Below are positions 16,065 to 47,916 of a DNA stretch of 64,000 nucleotides, piece by piece. The notes beneath the pieces are model-generated. The model saw only the letters and a list, made by a program, of their open reading frames with translations. It did no database searches and had not been told where the DNA came from. A program made the position numbers and the translations under genes. The stretch spans positions 5,126-69,125 of the IMG/VR virus record IMGVR_UViG_3300047160_000603. The stretch is one strand, 5' to 3'. Within the stretch, counting starts at the first letter, position 1. Each line of letters opens with the position of its first letter. The stretch comes from a virus (taxonomy: Duplodnaviria > Caudoviricetes).

Positions 16065-16151
16065 GGGTCTCTAGCTCAACAGGTAGAGCACCTTGTTATG
16101 GGGGCTACTTCATACACAAGTCATATCCAGGTTCGAGTCCTGGGAGACCCA
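16065..16151 (+). ncRNA. tRNA-like RNA with expanded anticodon arm
   Basis: GGGTCTC/GAGACCC acceptor, GCTC/GAGC D stem, CCAGG-TTCGAGT-CCTGG T arm; 21 nt instead of 7 in the anticodon loop; ends ACTA, not ACCA. Confidence 0.75.
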
Positions 16152-39132: not shown

Positions 39133-42100
39133 ATGCGTATTAAGCGTATCGGGCGTAAAACTGCACGTAGTCCAAAGGGCTGTCTGGCGACTAACACTGG
39201 CAGGGCAGCCAACATTGATCCCACACGGACAAGCATGTTGCGGATGCAGTTTGCCCGCGCACTAACAGCACGGTTCAACCGAATTAAAGCCGGTATCGTC
39301 AAGCTGATTGACACTGACGACGTACTGGGGAAGAAGGTGCAGGGACCGTATAAGATATTGAACCAGACATACACTTATGCCAGTACACAGGTGAACATTG
39401 AGGATGAGGATATTCTAGACACGTTCCACAGCATCCAACTCACGCTCGACCCGTCAGATGTAATCAAGTACGAGTATGAGCCACACATCACGGTACGCTA
39501 TGGGCTGCACGACCTACCGGGCATGAAAGATCGTGTTGCAGATATGGTTGGTGATCATGGATCTATCCGCGTGACGTTTGGTCCACTAAGTGTGTTCCGC
39601 ATCGAGAAAGATGGTGAGCCGCAGGACGTACTCAAGGTGGAAATACAGTCTGCAGACCTGCATGAACTGAACCGCCGGTTGGGGATCTTACCTAACACAC
39701 AGACATACGATTATAATCCACACATGACCATCGCCTACATGCGTGGTGGTACTGCGCAGGAATACGCAGGATCGCATCCGGATCTACACGGTGTCTACAA
39801 AGTCTTTGATACGTTGAAGTTTAGCGACGTTGATGGTAACAAGACTGACGTATCACTGTTCAGCCAAGTAGAGAATAAGTGGTGGTCCAACAAGGATAGT
39901 CAGCAGCAACTTGATGCGTTCCAGGAGTGGCTACAGAACACGCTGGCAGAGCACCTACTGGGCACCGACGATGAGACTGTATGGAAGGCGTACATCGCAC
40001 AGGGGTTTGCTCGTGGTGCTGCACGTGCTTATGACGACGTCAATAAGCGGAGGCGTGCACTTGCCCATACTGATAGTGAGATGGTGCCACTCTACGAGGG
40101 AACTAAGCGTCAGTTCCTGCGTGATGCGTTCCGGCAGCCAGTGGCAGCCAGCAAAGTGAAGTTACTGGCATCGCGCACATTCACTGACCTAAAGGGTGTC
40201 ACACAGGCAATGTCAGTGAAGATGACACGTACTCTAACCGATGGTCTTGTGGCTGGGCTATCACCACGTCAGATTGCACGCAACCTTGTCAAGGATGTGG
40301 ACGGCATCGGCATTCAGCGTGCACGCCAGATCGCCAACACAGAGATCATACGGGCACACAACGAGGGTCAACTACTGGCACTAGAAGAGCTAGGTGTCGA
40401 GCACGTAGGCGTGATGGTCGAGTGGCAGACCGCACGTAGTGGAGTGTGTAAGTTGTGCTCATTGATGGCGGGTACAGTCCTTACCATCCAAGAGGCACAT
40501 GGCATGATCCCGCGACACCCGTCGTGCCGCTGTGCTTGGATCCCGGCGAACGTCGGTGAGGACCAGAAAGGTCAGAAACGCAACCCGAAGGATATCAAGA
40601 TTGCAATTAAGAAGAGCCAGCAGGCAGGCGGAGATGCGGATCAGTGGGGAGCAGGTACACGCATCACCAAGCATCGGCCGGAGGGTATTCTCAATACCGG
40701 GCAGTGTTGCATTGATCTACGTCCACTCGACAACTACAGCCCGGGACAAGCGCGTGACTGGCACGGCATGTGGACTGTTGGTGGTGGTGGTGTACACCCA
40801 CCCGCAGCAGGTACTGCTGGACCACAGAGCACGAAGGGTAACGACAAGCGTAAGGAGATGCGCGACCAGTGGACTAAAGCGGAGAAGACAGAGTTCGGCA
40901 AGCTAACCAAGGAACGCAATAACCTCAACAAGAAGATTAAGGATGGTACTGCTACAGACGCGGATAAGGCGCGACACGGCGATGTGATGAAGCGTATCAA
41001 CGAACTCCGCCATGCTGGTCGTAGTCGTACTGGTGATGGTCGTGGTATTCCACCGAAGCCAACGCCACCTAAGCCACAGCCACACCAGATTATAGTAACT
41101 CATAATCCGAATAGTGATTACACACACCTGACACATACCGGAACCGGCGACAGGGTTACTATCCGCAAGCAGTCTGACAACACTTATGTCCTATACCACA
41201 AGATCAATAAGACGACTAATGGTCTTGAGTATCAAGGGAAGTTCTACCACGAACACGAGGCAATCAATAAGGGTCGCGATCTACTCGAAGGTAAGTCGAA
41301 GCCAGTCACTACGGATCAAGCCCATGCTGGCGATGCTTATCGTACAGCAGCCCATCGCCGCGATTCAGTAGAAACACTGCAACACATCCGTGACTACCAC
41401 GACAAGATGAAGCAGCATGACGCGGCACTAAGCGAGATACATAGTGATATGCTCAAGCTGAGTGACAAGACTACTGAGCTGACGCGCGCTTGGGAGATGA
41501 AGGTCAAGGCCATGGAAACTCATATTGACAAGCCACCCAAGAAGGATGCACCAATCGAGGAGTTAAACAAGTATCACGAGCATACAGTCAAGCTAGGGTT
41601 GGAGAGCGATGCTGCACTGGGTGCCTTGAAGAAGCACGAGCGAGAGTTAGTCAACGAGGCGTGGTCAACCCTCAAGCAGCACGCACAGAACACCGGTCCT
41701 ACTATCAAAGATCCTAAGCTACAGGATCGCATCGTTGGTGCCATACACCCAGACCTGAAGAACGAGGTAGATAAAACCAACCAACGCATGAGTAAGTTCG
41801 TTAGCGAGGACCATCGTAAGCAGATCGAGGCGACCTACGTCAAGCAGATCCCAGCAGGTGATGCTCAGCGTGCCTTCTTCCGTGGTGTGCAGCACGGTGG
41901 TACGCGACCCGAGGTACACTTAACGCCAAAGAACAGTGAGGCAGTGGTGGCACACGAGTTTGGCCACAGTGTCGACGAGCAGTCACACGTCTACGCTCTG
42001 ACGAATGGGTTCCTATACTCGCGGATTGGCGTTGAAGAGCCAGTCCACATGGGTTCGGGATACCGCGAGTCAGAGGTTGGTGTGGCTGATAAGTTCTTTG

Positions 42101-42261
42101 GTACTGGTGACCGCTATGCTGGGAAGATCTACACTGCCAAATCAACGGAGATCCTTAGTATGGGCTGGGAAGAGCTCATGCGTGACCCAGTAGGGTTCGC
42201 CAAGAAGGATCCGGAATACTTCAAGCTCACTGTTGGTATCCTTACCGGGAGACTCAAGTGA
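39133..42261 (+). CDS. MuF (SPP1 gp7-like) minor head protein with inserted 2H phosphoesterase and C-terminal HExxH domain
   Basis: PHITVRY and PHMTIAY; RARQIANTEIIRA and HPSCRC; AHEFGH...TEILSMG. Confidence 0.8.
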   Translation: MRIKRIGRKTARSPKGCLATNTGRAANIDPTRTSMLRMQFARALTARFNRIKAGIVKLIDTDDVLGKKVQGPYKILNQTYTYASTQVNIEDEDILDTFHSIQLTLDPSDVIKYEYEPHITVRYGLHDLPGMKDRVADMVGDHGSIRVTFGPLSVFRIEKDGEPQDVLKVEIQSADLHELNRRLGILPNTQTYDYNPHMTIAYMRGGTAQEYAGSHPDLHGVYKVFDTLKFSDVDGNKTDVSLFSQVENKWWSNKDSQQQLDAFQEWLQNTLAEHLLGTDDETVWKAYIAQGFARGAARAYDDVNKRRRALAHTDSEMVPLYEGTKRQFLRDAFRQPVAASKVKLLASRTFTDLKGVTQAMSVKMTRTLTDGLVAGLSPRQIARNLVKDVDGIGIQRARQIANTEIIRAHNEGQLLALEELGVEHVGVMVEWQTARSGVCKLCSLMAGTVLTIQEAHGMIPRHPSCRCAWIPANVGEDQKGQKRNPKDIKIAIKKSQQAGGDADQWGAGTRITKHRPEGILNTGQCCIDLRPLDNYSPGQARDWHGMWTVGGGGVHPPAAGTAGPQSTKGNDKRKEMRDQWTKAEKTEFGKLTKERNNLNKKIKDGTATDADKARHGDVMKRINELRHAGRSRTGDGRGIPPKPTPPKPQPHQIIVTHNPNSDYTHLTHTGTGDRVTIRKQSDNTYVLYHKINKTTNGLEYQGKFYHEHEAINKGRDLLEGKSKPVTTDQAHAGDAYRTAAHRRDSVETLQHIRDYHDKMKQHDAALSEIHSDMLKLSDKTTELTRAWEMKVKAMETHIDKPPKKDAPIEELNKYHEHTVKLGLESDAALGALKKHERELVNEAWSTLKQHAQNTGPTIKDPKLQDRIVGAIHPDLKNEVDKTNQRMSKFVSEDHRKQIEATYVKQIPAGDAQRAFFRGVQHGGTRPEVHLTPKNSEAVVAHEFGHSVDEQSHVYALTNGFLYSRIGVEEPVHMGSGYRESEVGVADKFFGTGDRYAGKIYTAKSTEILSMGWEELMRDPVGFAKKDPEYFKLTVGILTGRLK

Positions 42262-42503
42262 ACTACGTCGCGATACTGATCTACAAGGGTATGGAGCTAG
42301 TGCTAGATGCAGATGGTGTGTGGATAACGCCTGACCCTACGCTTACTGTGTACATGAATACCATATTTAGCCCTACAGTCTACCCACCCTCGCCCACAGC
42401 AGGTAACAGTGAATATGCAGCGCAAGCACGCGCAGCCGGTACCAAGCTAGGAACGGAGCCACGATGGGCACCAGCACCCACTACTACCGAACGTGTGTAC
42501 TAG
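42258..42503 (+). CDS. Small protein coupled to MuF (immunity candidate)
   Basis: GTGA overlap with the MuF stop. Confidence 0.55.
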   Translation: MNYVAILIYKGMELVLDADGVWITPDPTLTVYMNTIFSPTVYPPSPTAGNSEYAAQARAAGTKLGTEPRWAPAPTTTERVY

Positions 42504-42512
42504 GAACTCACC

Positions 42513-42746
42513 ATGCTTACGCCTGTGCAACACCGTATGCTGAGCATCCTCAATGATGGGGAACGGCACACCAAGGAAGAGCTACACGCCTGCCTCGAAG
42601 ACGACTTTGCCCCACTTACAGCCATCAAGTATCACATCGTTAACCTACGGGTCATACTGCGTGCCCGTAGTCGTGGTATTGTCCTAGAACGTATCGACGG
42701 TGTCGTGTACTACAGACAGGTCCAGTATCTATCAGTGACTGAGTAA
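42513..42746 (+). CDS. Small winged-helix-like DNA-binding protein
   Basis: LTPVQHRMLSIL.DG..HT.EEL...IKYHIVNLR pattern. Confidence 0.55.
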   Translation: MLTPVQHRMLSILNDGERHTKEELHACLEDDFAPLTAIKYHIVNLRVILRARSRGIVLERIDGVVYYRQVQYLSVTE

Positions 42747-42813
42747 CCAAGCCAAGTTTGCTTTCTTCTCATCTCGCTTGCGTTCTCCGCTGTCGCGCGA
42801 GTAAAGTGCAAGC

Positions 42814-44340
42814 GTGGAAAACCACTACGAAATCTTCGTCAGCAACTTGTCGGGCAAGCCTCGCCGACAAGTGCTAAACGGGCGTGACTATGTAGTCGTA
42901 CCCGTATCTATGATCGTTCCCGGTGTACTCAGTGGCAGCCGTGGTGCCCTGTATTACCCCGAGGATGAAGTGAGTAGTAACGTTGATGCCTGGAACGGTA
43001 TGCCACTGACGGCACGCCACCCGGTTATTGATGGTGTACCAGTGAGTGCTCGCGACCCGAGGGTGTTCAACAAGTACCACCTCGGCCATGTGTTCGCAGC
43101 CAACTACGACGGTCGGTTGACGGCTGAGGCGTGGTTCGATGTCGAGCTAACCAACCGTGTAGATAAGCGTATTATCCCAGCCCTGAACGCTGGTAAGCAG
43201 ATCGAGATTAGTACCGGGCTGTACACCAAGAATGAAGAGGCACCACCGGGCAGCACCTACAAGGGACGTCCATACACCCACATAGCGAGGAAGTACCGAC
43301 CTGATCACTTAGCGGTCCTCGTAGACGAAGTGGGTGCGTGTAGTCTGCGAGACGGCTGTGGTCTGAACGTTAACACCGAGGACTACGTGGACGAGCTCGA
43401 GCAACTATGGCAGACTTGGAATCGCGATTGGCCTCAGAGCAAGCGCGATAAGACACCCAAGGAAGACTTCGCCGGTCCGAATGAGTCCTTCCCCATTCAG
43501 GATCAAGCGGATGTCAATGCAGCGGCAAAGCTGATTGGTCATGCCAAGGACCCGGCAGCAGTCAAGGCACGGATCATTGCCATTGCCAAGCGGAAAGGTC
43601 TCAAGATTCCAGAGTCGTGGCAACACGACTCATCTCATAACTCCTCAGGAGTACCAAGCGTGAACAAGGAACAATTGATCGGTTGGCTCACTGCGAACTG
43701 CACGTGCTGGAAGGGTCCGTCCGCCAGTACTGCACTCAACGCGATGACCGAACCTGAACTCCAGCAACTCAAGACTTCTGCTGAGCAGAACGCCACCAAC
43801 ACCAGTATCGCCAACCAACTCTCGACGGGGGTGGTGGTGAACGGTGCGAAAGTGACGCTTACCAACGGAACACTTACTGCCGTGCAACTGACACCAGCCC
43901 CCAGCGCAACGCCTGCACCAACATCTGTACTGAACCTTACGCCACTCACCACACCCACGGCCAATGGGCAAGCAACCTCGATGAGGGACTGGCTCGCGGC
44001 GAATGGCAGCCCGCAAGAGAAGGCAGTGTGGAACAGCATGACCAGTGATTACGAGGCACAACGCCAAGTGATCATCAACAAGCTAACGTCCCACATTACT
44101 GACACTGCGAAGAAAGCCACGGCACAGGCAGCCTACGCAGGATTCGACTTGGATCAACTCAAGGCCATTGCACCCGCAGAAACCCCAGCCACGAACGGCG
44201 GTAACAGCCCGCACTTCGCACTCGGCGCGGGTGGCCCACTGGTGAATCTGAATGGTGGTCCCCAGAACCTGACCATCAACAAGGTGGACGGGAAGCCTGT
44301 GCAGAAGCTCACCTTCGAGAACCCCATCAAGAAGAAGTAA
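42814..44340 (+). CDS. Prohead protease/scaffold (DUF2213-like) with inserted small helical domain
   Basis: WNGMPLTARHP, EISTG, DHLAVL..EVGACS..DGCG; scaffold-like C-terminus. Confidence 0.7.
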   Translation: MENHYEIFVSNLSGKPRRQVLNGRDYVVVPVSMIVPGVLSGSRGALYYPEDEVSSNVDAWNGMPLTARHPVIDGVPVSARDPRVFNKYHLGHVFAANYDGRLTAEAWFDVELTNRVDKRIIPALNAGKQIEISTGLYTKNEEAPPGSTYKGRPYTHIARKYRPDHLAVLVDEVGACSLRDGCGLNVNTEDYVDELEQLWQTWNRDWPQSKRDKTPKEDFAGPNESFPIQDQADVNAAAKLIGHAKDPAAVKARIIAIAKRKGLKIPESWQHDSSHNSSGVPSVNKEQLIGWLTANCTCWKGPSASTALNAMTEPELQQLKTSAEQNATNTSIANQLSTGVVVNGAKVTLTNGTLTAVQLTPAPSATPAPTSVLNLTPLTTPTANGQATSMRDWLAANGSPQEKAVWNSMTSDYEAQRQVIINKLTSHITDTAKKATAQAAYAGFDLDQLKAIAPAETPATNGGNSPHFALGAGGPLVNLNGGPQNLTINKVDGKPVQKLTFENPIKKK

Positions 44341-44369
44341 AACACCTGAGTCGACTTTTGGGGGAGTCG

Positions 44370-44468
44370 GCGCGTCGTGTGTATGGGTTAGCACGGAGTG
44401 AAATATAGGGGGGACTGACGGGACCCTTTATATCTCCTCTGATAGGGTTCGAATCCCTAACGACGCGT
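44370..44468 (+). ncRNA. tRNA-like RNA with long extended anticodon-position helix
   Basis: GCGCGTCGT/ACGACGCGT acceptor, GTGT-ATGGGTTA-GCAC D arm, TAGGG-TTCGAAT-CCCTA T arm, GGAG/CTCC plus ATATAGGGGG/CCCTTTATAT helix. Confidence 0.7.
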
Positions 44469-44510
44469 TGTTACGTGTTCCAGTTTTCCTTAACTTCCTT
44501 GGAGGTACCC

Positions 44511-45170
44511 ATGTTCGCGTTTCGCGCAGCGAAGAGCCTCACGAAGAAGTCGGTCAAACCCACTCTGTTCCTTGCCACAGCGTTGTCATTGCTGTGGGTG
44601 GGCATTGATCTGTGTGATGGTGCAAGTGAGCGGTTCCACCACCGTGTGGAGCAAGCCCAAACAGAAGTATCCAAGCCAGTTACAGATATGACCGAGCAGG
44701 TAGCTGACGTCATGGTGAAATTCTGGCACAGCATCGAGAGCAACCCAGGACCGAGCATCCTGGCAGCCATACTGTTCGTCCTGACCATCGTCTACCACAA
44801 GATCAAGGGTCGTTCCACTGTTGCGGCTGTCAAAGCTGCCGTACTGCGTGAACCCCCCATCGAGCAGCCACTACCGAACCCAACGCTTGAACGTATCCAG
44901 CGTGACGTAATCGAGAACCAGATGCTGGAGACCTACGACAAATTGGAGAAGCGTCAGAAGGATCTGCCCTCCGAGATCGAGAATGCGGCAGCCCGCGTGC
45001 GTCAGGCAGATAGCCAGCGTGTTCGTACTGCAGAAACAGCAGACCGGGCAGCTAATGAGTTCGAGAAGGCCAAAGCCTACCACCAACGTCTCCTCAAGGA
45101 GCGCGAGGACGGTAGCAACCTAATGGCAGAGATCGAGCGTGAGCTTAACACTCGAGAAACCGCCACCTGA
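44511..45170 (+). CDS. Membrane protein with C-terminal coiled coil
   Basis: RBS GGAGG; two hydrophobic segments; charged helical tail. Confidence 0.65.
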   Translation: MFAFRAAKSLTKKSVKPTLFLATALSLLWVGIDLCDGASERFHHRVEQAQTEVSKPVTDMTEQVADVMVKFWHSIESNPGPSILAAILFVLTIVYHKIKGRSTVAAVKAAVLREPPIEQPLPNPTLERIQRDVIENQMLETYDKLEKRQKDLPSEIENAAARVRQADSQRVRTAETADRAANEFEKAKAYHQRLLKEREDGSNLMAEIERELNTRETAT

Positions 45171-45178
45171 TAACACCT

Positions 45179-45220
45179 ATCCGCGTCCTGGGGCTGGGGG
45201 TTCAATTCCCCCGCGCGGAT
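45179..45220 (+). ncRNA. tRNA minihelix (acceptor stem plus T arm)
   Basis: ATCCGCGT/GCGCGGAT stem, GGGGG-TTCAATT-CCCCC T arm, 9-nt connector. Confidence 0.55.
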
Positions 45221-45254
45221 CTGTCCCTACTACCTTCAACACTTGGAGATACCG

Positions 45255-45749
45255 ATGGCATTGCGTGGCAACAAGGTCGTCATTAGCAGTCCGCAGAATG
45301 GCAAGCAGCGTGCAGGCGTGCTCGGCGATACGTCCGCGGCTGGGACGTGTATGGAAATCCAGACTCCGTTCTATCAGGGCGGACAGCATCTGTACCGCGC
45401 ATTCCAGCCGGGTACTGACGGTTTGCGTCGGCAGGTGATTGTCCTGCTCGAAGACGACATCCAGGGCTTTGGCATCCTGAAATCTGATGGCACGCCGAAC
45501 GCTGGTGTCAGTGGCACGATGCGTCAGTTCTATTGGCCCGTCCCCGGTGACGAGATGAACATGCTGATCAAGGATATCGCTGGTACCGCGGACGACCACA
45601 CTGCCGGTGACCTACTGATCATCAATACTGGCACTGGCAAGCTGATCGCCAGCACTGGCAGCGAACAGAGTGATCCGTTCGTCCTGCTCGAGACCGTCAT
45701 TGACCCAACAGCGGATTTCTATAGTCCGTGCATGTTCACTGGGTACTAA
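45255..45749 (+). CDS. Probable head decoration protein
   Basis: Size and position directly before the MCP; PGDEMNML...GDLL...GTGKL. Confidence 0.55.
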   Translation: MALRGNKVVISSPQNGKQRAGVLGDTSAAGTCMEIQTPFYQGGQHLYRAFQPGTDGLRRQVIVLLEDDIQGFGILKSDGTPNAGVSGTMRQFYWPVPGDEMNMLIKDIAGTADDHTAGDLLIINTGTGKLIASTGSEQSDPFVLLETVIDPTADFYSPCMFTGY

Positions 45750-45756
45750 CCAACCT

Positions 45757-45787
45757 GCACACCAATAGCGGGGAACTGTTGGTGTGC
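45757..45787 (+). other. 12-bp intergenic hairpin before the MCP gene
   Basis: GCACACCAATAG-CGGGGAA-CTGTTGGTGTGC. Confidence 0.65.
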
Positions 45788-45826
45788 TTCACCTACCACA
45801 ATCACACTACAACGGGAGATCGAACA

Positions 45827-47053
45827 GTGTTCACAGACTTTGTACTCAATGGGGCTGGGCACGGCGAAGTCGGCGAGGTAATGAACCAAGTCGCCTTCGA
45901 TCCGGGCTGGCTCCAACCGTATGTCCGTGAGGATGGCGTTAAGTGCGTCACCATCAACGGCAAGAAAACCTACAACAAAGAACTCAAGCGGTTCGAGTTC
46001 GAACGCTGGGAATACCCACTCAATGCACTCCGCCAGATGGGTTACGACCTGCCTGTGTGGAACTCCACCATGCTCCGTAAGGAGGAATGGTTGGAGCTCG
46101 AGAAGCAGGTACTGGGTGCCGCGCAATTGCGTCTGCGTGCATGGGCTGACCTGAGTGGTGCCAACACGTTCGGAGGATTCGACGGCATGTCGAAGATGGT
46201 CCTCGAACACGAGACCGCGAACGATCCCGGCGAAGCGATGGTGGATATGGAAGGTGTGGCAGACGGGCGCAACGATGCTCCGCTCTACCAACTGGAAGGT
46301 CTGCCGCTACCCATCACCTACGCGAACTTCCACTTCAGTGCGCGTAAGCTCCGTATCAGTCGTGGTGGTAATACCCCGATTGACATGCAGATGGGTAAGG
46401 CTGCCGGTCGCCGTGTAGCCGAGATGGTCGAGAAGACTACCATTGGCGTTGAGACTGGGATCACCTACGGTGGTGCCAGTACCTACGTCGGTGGGTATGG
46501 TCGTAACAGTAAGGTCTACGGGTATCTGAACTTCCCGCAGCGATTACTGAAGAACAACATCGCGACGCCGACTGGCTCCAACCCGGAGAACACGGTCGCT
46601 GATGTGCTGGCAATGCGGGACCAGTTAACCGCAAGCAAGAAGTACGGTCCATGGATGATTTATCACAGCAACGACTGGGATAAGTACATGGACAACGACT
46701 ACGCATTCGTCAACGGCAGCAACTGGGCTACCACCCCCAGTAAGACGCTTCGTGAACGTCTGCGGCAGATCGACGGTGTCCAGGACGTTCGCCGTCTGGA
46801 CTACTTGCCTGCATCCGCCACGCAGTTCAGCGCGGCACCTGACCGCATCACAGTTGCCAACCCGTTCACGCTAATCATGGTCGAGCTGACTGACGAGACA
46901 GCTCGTGCAGTCAATGGTATGGACCTGACCGTGGTCCAGTGGGAAACGAAGGGTGGCATGATGCTGAACTTCAAGGTGATGTGCATCTGGGTCCCGCAAC
47001 TCCGTGCTGACTTCTACGGGCACTGCGGCATCCTGATCGGCACCACGTCGTGA
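45827..47053 (+). CDS. Major capsid protein (HK97 fold, Linocin-M18/encapsulin-like)
   Basis: EEW.ELEKQV..AA..RLR, PLPI...FHFSAR.L...R, AAGRRVAE..E, YGYLNFP; GTG start with RBS GGGAG. Confidence 0.8.
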   Translation: MFTDFVLNGAGHGEVGEVMNQVAFDPGWLQPYVREDGVKCVTINGKKTYNKELKRFEFERWEYPLNALRQMGYDLPVWNSTMLRKEEWLELEKQVLGAAQLRLRAWADLSGANTFGGFDGMSKMVLEHETANDPGEAMVDMEGVADGRNDAPLYQLEGLPLPITYANFHFSARKLRISRGGNTPIDMQMGKAAGRRVAEMVEKTTIGVETGITYGGASTYVGGYGRNSKVYGYLNFPQRLLKNNIATPTGSNPENTVADVLAMRDQLTASKKYGPWMIYHSNDWDKYMDNDYAFVNGSNWATTPSKTLRERLRQIDGVQDVRRLDYLPASATQFSAAPDRITVANPFTLIMVELTDETARAVNGMDLTVVQWETKGGMMLNFKVMCIWVPQLRADFYGHCGILIGTTS

Positions 47054-47060
47054 CCGTACA

Positions 47061-47122
47061 GGGTGGGGTAGCGACCGAGAGGACACGAGTTCGCGCATGG
47101 CTCGTCTGGTCCTACCCCACCC
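47061..47122 (+). other. Long stem-loop immediately after the MCP stop
   Basis: GGGTGGGGTAG/CTACCCCACCC plus GACC/GGTC plus ACGAG/CTCGT. Confidence 0.7.
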
Positions 47123-47163
47123 GCCTCCTTCTTACTCAACCCGCTAACCCCAAGGAGTTACCT

Positions 47164-47916
47164 GTGCTCAAGCCACTGTTCACAGCCTGCTTGCTTCTGG
47201 TGTGTGCCATGCTTTCTGCCACAGACACGGCACCGTTCATTGTCAGTGATAGCCCATCACCTGCCACTGGGTTCGTCGAGATCAAGTACGCACTGGCCGA
47301 GGGTGACACAGTCCAGTGGGAAGTGACGCCGAAGGCCACGTTCGTCAAGGATCATGTTGAGTATAACATTGTCAAGGATAAGGACGGGAAGGTCACCACG
47401 GTCACACCGGTGAATGCTGTGCTGCACTTCAACGGTCCGGCTGGCAACTACACCGTCACCGCGTTCGTTATCAACTTCGATAAGAAGACATTCGATCGTA
47501 AGTACCTTCAGCACACAGTTGGCGTACCTACACCACCCACGCCACCGACTCCCCCACAACCGGCACCACCGTTGCCGAGCGTGGACCTACAGAAGAAGAT
47601 CGCCGAGGCCTTCAATACTGACAAGGGTACGAAGGCAGACGCAGTACAACTATCTGCACTGTACAAACTCACTGCCAAGCTATGCAGCGACAGGAAGAAG
47701 GCACCCAGTAGCCGTGAGCTCCTCCGCCAAGTGCGTGAGGCGAGTGATGGGCTAATCGGTAATGACCAACTCGCTACAGTGCGTACCCTCGTGGCCGCAG
47801 AGCTTGCCACCATCTTCGGCAGCCCTACAGATACAGACCTTACTGACGTACAGCGCACCAGTGCCGCAGAACTATTCCTCAAGCTCGCAGCAGCCCTTGA
47901 CGCTCTGCTTGGCTAA
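47164..47916 (+). CDS. Exported protein: signal peptide, beta domain, Pro linker, helical domain
   Basis: VLKPLFTACLLLVCAMLSA signal-like start, RBS AAGGAG. Confidence 0.6.
   Translation: MLKPLFTACLLLVCAMLSATDTAPFIVSDSPSPATGFVEIKYALAEGDTVQWEVTPKATFVKDHVEYNIVKDKDGKVTTVTPVNAVLHFNGPAGNYTVTAFVINFDKKTFDRKYLQHTVGVPTPPTPPTPPQPAPPLPSVDLQKKIAEAFNTDKGTKADAVQLSALYKLTAKLCSDRKKAPSSRELLRQVREASDGLIGNDQLATVRTLVAAELATIFGSPTDTDLTDVQRTSAAELFLKLAAALDALLG

Follow-up and report, generated by a model that had tools for sequence, protein, structure and literature searches.

A tRNA-Shaped RNA Whose Anticodon Arm Is Replaced by a Long Helix, Next to an Inserted Gene among the Head Genes of a Soil Phage

The Head-Gene Locus and Its Inserted Block

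The window, that is, the whole 64,000-nt stretch of DNA analyzed here, comes from a complete viral record of 69,125 bp that has direct terminal repeats and originates from soil. The head genes comprise, in this order, a portal gene, a gene for a MuF head protein with a 2H-phosphoesterase domain, two small genes, and a head protease/scaffold gene (DUF2213; 42814-44340, + strand). Immediately downstream of the protease gene lies the tRNA-shaped RNA that is the subject of this work, hereafter TL2, followed by a gene for a 219-aa protein (44511-45170, +) that matches no Pfam or PHROG family, a tRNA-like minihelix, a gene for a 164-aa head protein (45255-45749, +), and a DUF6260 capsid-like gene. 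The interval 42000-47200 contains neither a sigma-70-like promoter nor an intrinsic terminator, and all its genes are on the + strand, so that TL2 is probably cotranscribed. The MuF head-morphogenesis protein (39133-42261, +) carries its 2H phosphoesterase/LigT-like domain (PF13563) at residues 116-210, with a weak match to Acb1, and the same MuF-2H fusion is present in the closest relative (L015).

The replication genes of the phage (PolA, a DnaG-type primase, UvrD, a PD-(D/E)XK nuclease, and an N6/N4 methylase) have a bacteriophage-like look. Searches of the phage genome for an integrase, RtcB, an Rnl2-type ligase, and a CCA-adding enzyme identified none of them. We rejected an attachment site as an identity for TL2 because the genome has no integrase, and a repeated mobile hairpin because the window contains no other copy of TL2.

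In the three closest related phages whose loci we inspected (L015/L016, L017, and L018), the protease gene is followed, after a gap of 62-86 nt, by a gene for a protein of about 160 aa and then by the DUF6260 gene. The 164-aa protein of the window is 58% and 45% identical to its counterparts in relatives, and its orthologue directly follows the protease gene in those inspected. On a larger scale, a homologue of the 164-aa gene was found downstream of the protease gene at 67 of 86 related loci, and a homologue of the 219-aa gene at none of the 86. This comparison of gene order indicates that TL2, the 219-aa gene, and the minihelix are a block inserted between the protease and 164-aa genes.

Two hydrophobic segments mark the N-terminal part of the 219-aa protein, and its C-terminal half is helical and charged. 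It might be a membrane or spanin-like protein. Eight homologues could be identified, with 44-54% identity, one of which bears the JGI label of a Skp-family chaperone. In the four neighborhoods that we fetched (from L009-L014), the homologous genes are located upstream of a terminase gene in other phage contigs, and no tRNA-like element was detected in their flanks.

The heptamer AACACCT occurs at the left edge of the block, directly after the stop codon of the protease gene (44341-44347, +), and again one base after the stop codon of the 219-aa gene (45172-45178, +). A third copy, at 47915 (+), overlaps the stop of the gene ending at 47916. The heptamer is not enriched overall (6 copies versus 9.5 expected); the pair bounding the block would fit microhomology at the insertion site.

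Structure and Folding of TL2

TL2 is 99 nt long (44370-44468, +) and was characterized from its sequence, its predicted fold, a descriptor scan, and ARAGORN runs after in silico deletion; the coordinates and letters given in the initial annotation are exact, base for base. Its acceptor stem (GCGCGTCGT, 44370-78, paired with ACGACGCGT, 44460-68) consists of 9 pairs, the outermost of which is G-T (G-U in the RNA). Within it, a canonical 7-bp core (44372-44378/44460-44466; GCGTCGT/ACGACGC) sits directly on a 5-bp T stem and is followed by a discriminator base, G44467, as in the tRNA family RF00005; two extra pairs lengthen the stem to 9 bp. The D arm (44379-44394, +) is formed by GTGT (44379-82) and GCAC (44391-94), which enclose the D loop ATGGGTTA. 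The linker between the acceptor and D stems measures 0 nt (1 nt if the D stem is counted as 3 bp), which means that nucleotides 8-9 are missing, whereas RF00005 has a 2-nt linker (U8, N9). The D loop contains G18 and G19, the T loop TTCGAAT fits T54-T55-C56-R57-A58, and the elbow that the initial annotation described as intact is indeed borne out by the sequence. The T arm (44443-44459, +; TAGGG-TTCGAAT-CCCTA) matches the consensus and is separated from the preceding arm by a variable region of 5 nt (TCTGA).

A long arm (44395-44437, +) replaces the anticodon arm. Its base is made of GGAG (44395-98) and CTCC (44434-37), followed by a 5' bulge, TGAA (44399-402), a 10-bp helix (ATATAGGGGG, 44403-12, with CCCTTTATAT, 44424-33) that includes two G-T (G-U) pairs, and an apical loop of 11 nt (GACTGACGGGA, 44413-23). 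A stem of 4 bp, a 4-nt bulge, 10 bp, and an 11-nt loop are therefore found where a tRNA has a 5-bp anticodon stem and a 7-nt loop with U33 and R37. If tandem G-A/A-G pairs closed the loop, they would leave CUGACGG at the tip and bring the arm to 16 pairs, which is 11 pairs beyond a normal anticodon stem, or about one A-form turn. The tip of the arm is about 9-11 bp further out than in a tRNA, in agreement with the earlier description of a decoding end displaced by about one helical turn.

Overall, the structure comprises 32 pairs and not a single mismatch. With canonical bacterial and phage tRNAs (RF00005) TL2 has in common an acceptor stem, a D arm with GG, a 5-nt variable region, and a T arm with GGTTCGAATCC; it differs from them by the loss of nucleotides 8-9 and by an arm of 14-16 pairs with an 11-nt (or 7-nt) loop, compared with 5 bp and 7 nt. 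No CCA is encoded after its 3' end, a trait that it shares with the tRNAs of many bacteria.

When TL2 is folded alone, the minimum free energy structure is the cloverleaf (-43.8 kcal/mol, z -4.38), and none of 200 shuffled sequences was as stable. The opposite strand folds less stably (-32.3 kcal/mol), and the G-U pairs point to an RNA made from the + strand, the strand of all neighboring genes. We also scanned the window with a home-made descriptor that requires a 7-bp acceptor, GG in the D arm, and a T arm that is perfectly paired and whose loop reads TTCRANN. It matched TL2, the RNA at position 16065 described below, and one dubious element of 216 nt, as compared with a single match in 20 shuffled windows. 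In addition, the three exact GGTTCRANYCC sites of the window all fall in + strand intergenic spaces and all have acceptor-like pairing around them.

The picture is less simple in the context of the full 173-nt intergenic transcript, where the acceptor and D stems of TL2 compete with flanking hairpins and have a pair probability of 0.01-0.41, depending on the flanks chosen; when the cloverleaf is imposed, the energy exceeds the minimum by 3.9 kcal/mol. A pair probability of about 0.9 is retained by the long hairpin and by the T arm. Because values of 0.04-0.99 were obtained in this way for genuine tRNAs from related phages, the context folds weaken the cloverleaf of TL2 but do not refute it. 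In predicted folds, a small hairpin directly 5' of TL2 (44349-44369, +; the CGACT...AGTCG region) reaches into the 5' acceptor strand and is a competitor of the acceptor stem.

These competing folds, and the fact that Rfam recognizes nothing beyond the T arm, would be in line with a chance resemblance to tRNA, or with a hairpin acting purely at the DNA level or on mRNA stability. Such an explanation is nevertheless highly improbable given the rarity of descriptor matches in shuffled windows, the fold z-score of -4.4, and the intergenic, + strand location and acceptor-like pairing of all three GGTTCRANYCC sites. TL2 is a real, strand-specific, tRNA-shaped element.

tRNA Finders and Enlarged tRNA Genes in the Clade

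ARAGORN at default settings did not call TL2, the 16065 RNA being its only call in the window, and Rfam at gathering thresholds likewise reported the 16065 RNA alone. Even a permissive Rfam search (E 10) of 241 nt around TL2 gave no tRNA match, only insignificant T-arm fragments, and TL2 reaches neither 29 bits with a covariance model nor a default ARAGORN call. The initial annotation had proposed that ordinary tRNA finders may miss both RNAs, which is correct for TL2 but not for the 16065 RNA, found by ARAGORN as well as by Rfam (48.2 bits). When introns were allowed and the threshold was lowered, ARAGORN reported TL2 as a tRNA-Ile(TAT) with a 28-nt "intron" at 29/30. Likewise, in silico deletion of 26-28 nt from the long arm was sufficient for a tRNA call at default settings, and the anticodon of the deleted forms varied with the cut (tat, tta, aat, or aaa). 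These calls indicate that the body of TL2 is tRNA-like and that its decoding end is undefined.

In the light of the ARAGORN results, TL2 might be an intron-like tRNA gene that bears an insert. If about 28 nt were removed (roughly 44399-44426), a tRNA of 70-71 nt would result, with the loop TTTATAT and the anticodon UAU (Ile, codon AUA); some host or phage activity would have to cut and rejoin the RNA. In favor of this reading, ATA represents 10.7% of the Ile codons of the phage (5.5 per 1000 codons). Moreover, in TL2, in the 16065 RNA (TTCATAC, anticodon CAT), and in the enlarged tRNA gene of another related phage (G044; TTTAGAA), we read the 7 nt beside the 3' stem strand as conforming to an anticodon loop of the form Y-U-NNN-R-N. 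On the other hand, the shifting anticodon counts against this reading, as do the features of the spliced model, whose anticodon stem has only 4 bp, whose D stem is weakened, and from which nucleotides 8-9 are missing. TL2 also has no bulge-helix-bulge, the motif of protein-spliced archaeal and eukaryal introns, defined as two 3-nt bulges 4 bp apart: its one bulge, of 4 nt, is on the 5' side of the helix, and the opposite side is free of bulges. To our knowledge, no splicing of such tRNA inserts is known in bacteria. The replication genes of the phage resemble those of bacterial phages (PolA, DnaG-type primase, UvrD), and its genome encodes no RtcB, Rnl2-type ligase, or CCA-adding enzyme; its MuF protein does carry the 2H/LigT-like domain. 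An archaeal host with bulge-helix-bulge splicing was rejected on the basis of these replication genes and of the missing motif.

An insert in a tRNA gene can be defined from an insert-free allele, as was done for Lak megaphages, whose tRNA genes are reported to contain "enigmatic" introns (Devoto et al. 2019, PMC6784885). In that study, bacterial-mode tRNA searches failed, and the introns were placed by tRNAscan in eukaryote mode and checked against intron-free alleles (PMC6784885). This published precedent speaks for an insert in TL2, and the two cases are alike in having extra sequence in the anticodon region of a phage tRNA-like gene, no known mechanism of removal, and a failure of bacterial-mode finders. 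However, no insert-free allele or homologue of TL2 was found in the collections searched; its cut is undefined, its body is deviant, and it lies in a head operon rather than in a tRNA cluster. Similarly, searches of IMG/VR for insert-free alleles of the 16065 RNA and of the enlarged genes designated G044 and G019a returned only unrelated tRNAs or the element itself.

The search for relatives of TL2 was equally negative. A covariance model built from TL2 (R1), a type of search that the initial annotation had suggested, identified no homologue in four related viral records or in 18 loci (best non-self score 16 bits, E 0.1). Gapped D-arm/T-loop patterns had no match in IMG/VR, a similar gapped pattern had two matches in JGI metagenomes, both unrelated, and two patterns had none in 185,579 species genomes; nor did GenBank phages yield a match to blastn or megablast. 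With no homologue in the viral, metagenome, and genome collections searched, TL2 provides no covariation and no sign of selection. No RNA run is listed for the locus; four soil DNA runs carry short contig pieces that are identical to the window wherever they cover it, so that they supply no natural variants.

We next consider the clade as a whole. Relatives were gathered from IMG/VR via the protease (409 confirmed, 80 kept), and the Rfam tRNA model was run on 55 of their records. Eight of the 21 tRNA matches have an enlarged middle region, as compared with none longer than 92 nt among 78 matches in eight unrelated phage records, and for most of the eight the Rfam alignments place the extra letters in the anticodon region. 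The 16065 RNA of the window (TL1; 16065-16151, +; Rfam 48.2 bits and ARAGORN) has 19 nt in its anticodon loop at a place where 5 are expected, and once 12 of them (TATGGGGGCTAC) are removed the loop is canonical, TTCATAC (CAT, Met or Ile2); IMG/VR contained no homologue close to identity with this RNA. In related soil phages, the enlarged tRNA-like genes range in size from 81 to 138 nt. The longest (G001; L022:1501-1638, -) has 77 nt in place of 11, and according to the Rfam alignments two others have 16 nt (G044) and 21 nt (G014) in place of 7. Another phage (G019) has an odd tRNA with 15 nt in place of 6 (L107:1501-1581, +) and, beside it, a 112-nt element (L107:1614-1725, +) that matches the descriptor and in which Rfam sees the T arm only. 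A neighboring pair of genes in G012 (L110:1308-1427 and 1501-1614, -; 120 and 114 nt) has acceptor and D arms in common and unlike middle parts, and the 106-nt element of G023 (L111:1501-1606, +) contains an inner hairpin resembling a T arm (GATGG-TTCAATT-CCGTC). The coordinates L108:1501-1582 (-) and L109:1501-1586 (+) belong to the same set of enlarged genes.

Genes for tRNAs with enlarged anticodon regions are frequent in the phage clade of TL2 and absent among the 78 control matches. The structure proposed in the initial annotation is real, whereas a family of tRNA mimics defined by homology or covariation is not apparent; what the clade exhibits instead is this habit of enlarged middles. 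TL2 and the 16065 RNA have nothing in common beyond the general tRNA consensus, and TL2 has no homologue in the collections searched. The proportion of enlarged matches (8/21 versus 0/78 controls above 92 nt) is in favor of an insert-bearing tRNA gene of the kind common in the clade. So is the location of the enlarged-arm elements checked (G001, G012, G019, and G010), which are clustered with other tRNA genes and outside head operons and would make of TL2 an odd tRNA gene. TL2, however, is part of a head operon, and the minihelix next to it cannot be a tRNA; all in all we regard the insert-bearing reading as rather unlikely. Ordinary-length CUA (amber suppressor) tRNAs are present in three relatives (L022:1323-1396, -; L116:1858-1929, -; G037:65040-65110, -), and TAG may be a sense codon in some members of the clade. 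Under the standard code, long open frames are seen in the window.

Another reading is an action of TL2 in trans, either as a decoy or sponge for a tRNA-binding host factor (e.g., an anticodon nuclease or a tRNA-targeting defense) or as a natural tRNA scaffold that would stabilize the long hairpin and present it. The intact elbow and acceptor, combined with a replaced arm, are compatible with such a role. With the tandem G-A pairs, the extra length would be about one A-form turn, and the CUGACGG tip would face as an anticodon loop does; the G012 pair, with common acceptor and D arms and different middles, provides a parallel. Against this, we found no partner protein, no conservation, and no sign of a defense system. 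The loop has no complementary target in the phage genome (12 matches at up to 3 mismatches versus 22 expected, the only exact match being TL2 itself), and an antisense target of the apical loop was rejected on that account. We judge a role in trans quite unlikely. A more general and decidedly speculative idea is that TL2 and the enlarged-arm elements of the clade would constitute an undescribed class of phage "tRNA-scaffold" RNAs, whose conserved top half would recruit host tRNA end-processing and protection. The anticodon arm would then be a cargo slot, with varied hairpins serving as decoys, guides, or processing signals and not as anticodons.

The Minihelix Partner and a Possible Processing Signal

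The minihelix at the other end of the inserted gene (45180-45219, +) is composed of a 7-bp acceptor (TCCGCGT/GCGCGGA), a 9-nt connector, and a T arm (GGGGG-TTCAATT-CCCCC), and both the D arm and the anticodon arm are missing. A descriptor for it matched once in 50 shuffled windows and had no match in ten related genomes or in the loci of relatives. TL2 and the minihelix share the acceptor/T-arm stack, and established work on tRNA minihelices has shown that RNase P, RNase Z, and the CCA-adding enzyme need no more than this stack as a substrate.

Both elements are placed exactly at the edges of the block, each beginning after an AACACCT copy. This arrangement may be explained if they are decaying remnants of tRNA genes that came with the 219-aa gene from the tRNA region of a donor and are now functionless. 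The absent nucleotides 8-9 of TL2 and the absent arms of the minihelix resemble deletions, and TL2 is an orphan sequence in which conservation is not demonstrable. Random decay, however, would be expected to break stems first, whereas all 32 pairs of TL2 are intact, its T and D loops keep the consensus, and its long arm is a clean 14-bp helix and not debris. Furthermore, the homologues of the 219-aa gene (L009-L014) have no tRNA nearby. We find a functionless relic unlikely.

We favor, tentatively and with a probability of roughly 0.38, a reading in which TL2 is a non-decoding, tRNA-like processing signal. TL2 keeps the features of a tRNA that are known to be recognized by RNase P, RNase Z, and the CCA-adding enzyme, namely the stacked acceptor and T arm and the elbow formed by the D and T loops. 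It has lost what is needed on the ribosome, namely nucleotides 8-9 and a 7-nt loop at the right distance. TL2 came in with the 219-aa gene, with a bare minihelix at the other end of that gene, and host enzymes of tRNA end processing may cut both elements. We infer that the cuts would free the message of the 219-aa gene from a long head-operon transcript, in the manner of tRNA punctuation, and that a stable RNA of about 96 nt would remain as a side product.

Several of the observations above converge on this processing signal. As an RNA structure, TL2 has a cloverleaf of 32 pairs free of mismatches (z -4.4), folds better on the + strand, where its helix includes G-U pairs, and has a perfect T arm and the D-loop GG, in addition to being called by ARAGORN once 26-28 nt of the arm are deleted. 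As for its context, the block sits between genes that are adjacent in L015/16, L017, and L018, and none of the 86 related loci has the 219-aa gene at this place; TL2 and the minihelix stand at both ends of the inserted gene and share their top half, no separate promoter or terminator is found nearby, making cotranscription probable, and the genome has no integrase, which makes an attachment site unlikely. The minihelix is itself unlikely by chance (1 of 50 shuffles) and cannot decode, and the part that it has in common with TL2 is exactly what RNase P, RNase Z, and the CCA-adding enzyme minimally require.

Other observations are less favorable to a processing signal. TL2 has no homologue and hence offers no evidence from covariation or selection. 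Through pairing of the leader bases -1 and -2 with positions 73 and 74, the stem reaches 9 bp, which is less than ideal for cutting by RNase P or RNase Z. In folds of the full intergenic transcript, flanking hairpins are predicted to prevail over the acceptor and D stems (pair probability 0.01-0.41). Because no tRNA-like element was found in the head operons of the relatives inspected, punctuation is not a habit of the clade, and the clustering of the checked enlarged-arm elements with tRNA genes is more easily reconciled with an odd tRNA gene.

tRNA-like processing signals in long transcripts are known from mascRNA/MEN-beta, from plant mitochondrial t-elements, and from mitochondrial tRNA punctuation, all eukaryotic or organellar. 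Like mascRNA and the t-elements, TL2 is a non-decoding tRNA shape between coding regions, for which cutting by RNase P and RNase Z is proposed. It differs from mascRNA in its bacterial-virus setting, and the sole Rfam similarity between them is a T-arm match of 13 bits, which is not significant. The tRNA-like domain of tmRNA resembles TL2 in having an acceptor and a T arm, with a long helix at the position of the anticodon arm, but has no D stem, which TL2 does have, and runs into pseudoknots and a tag reading frame; neither ARAGORN -m nor Rfam detects a tmRNA at the locus. YrlA, a bacterial and phage Y-like RNA, contains a tRNA-like module in which the 5' and 3' ends lie in a long stem and the acceptor is capped. 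TL2 is similar to it in that the elbow is kept and a long helix replaces the anticodon stem, but has normal tRNA topology and no match to an Rfam family. Identities as tmRNA or YrlA were rejected for want of Rfam or ARAGORN support, as was a selenocysteine-tRNA-like RNA, whose UCA is also missing from the loop.

TL2 is best filed with the poorly understood phage tRNA-like genes in which the anticodon arm is replaced or interrupted. What is new is its unusual context, inserted along with a gene and paired with a minihelix. Neither TL2 nor the 112-nt element of G019 has a full-length Rfam tRNA match, and the inventories of phage tRNAs and tRNA-like RNAs are accordingly undercounted. If TL2 were spliced, it would be one more unexplained phage tRNA "intron," a class for which we know of no bacterial mechanism. 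If TL2 and the minihelix are instead cut by RNase P and RNase Z, they would represent tRNA punctuation in a bacterial virus, a means of plugging a foreign gene into an existing operon.
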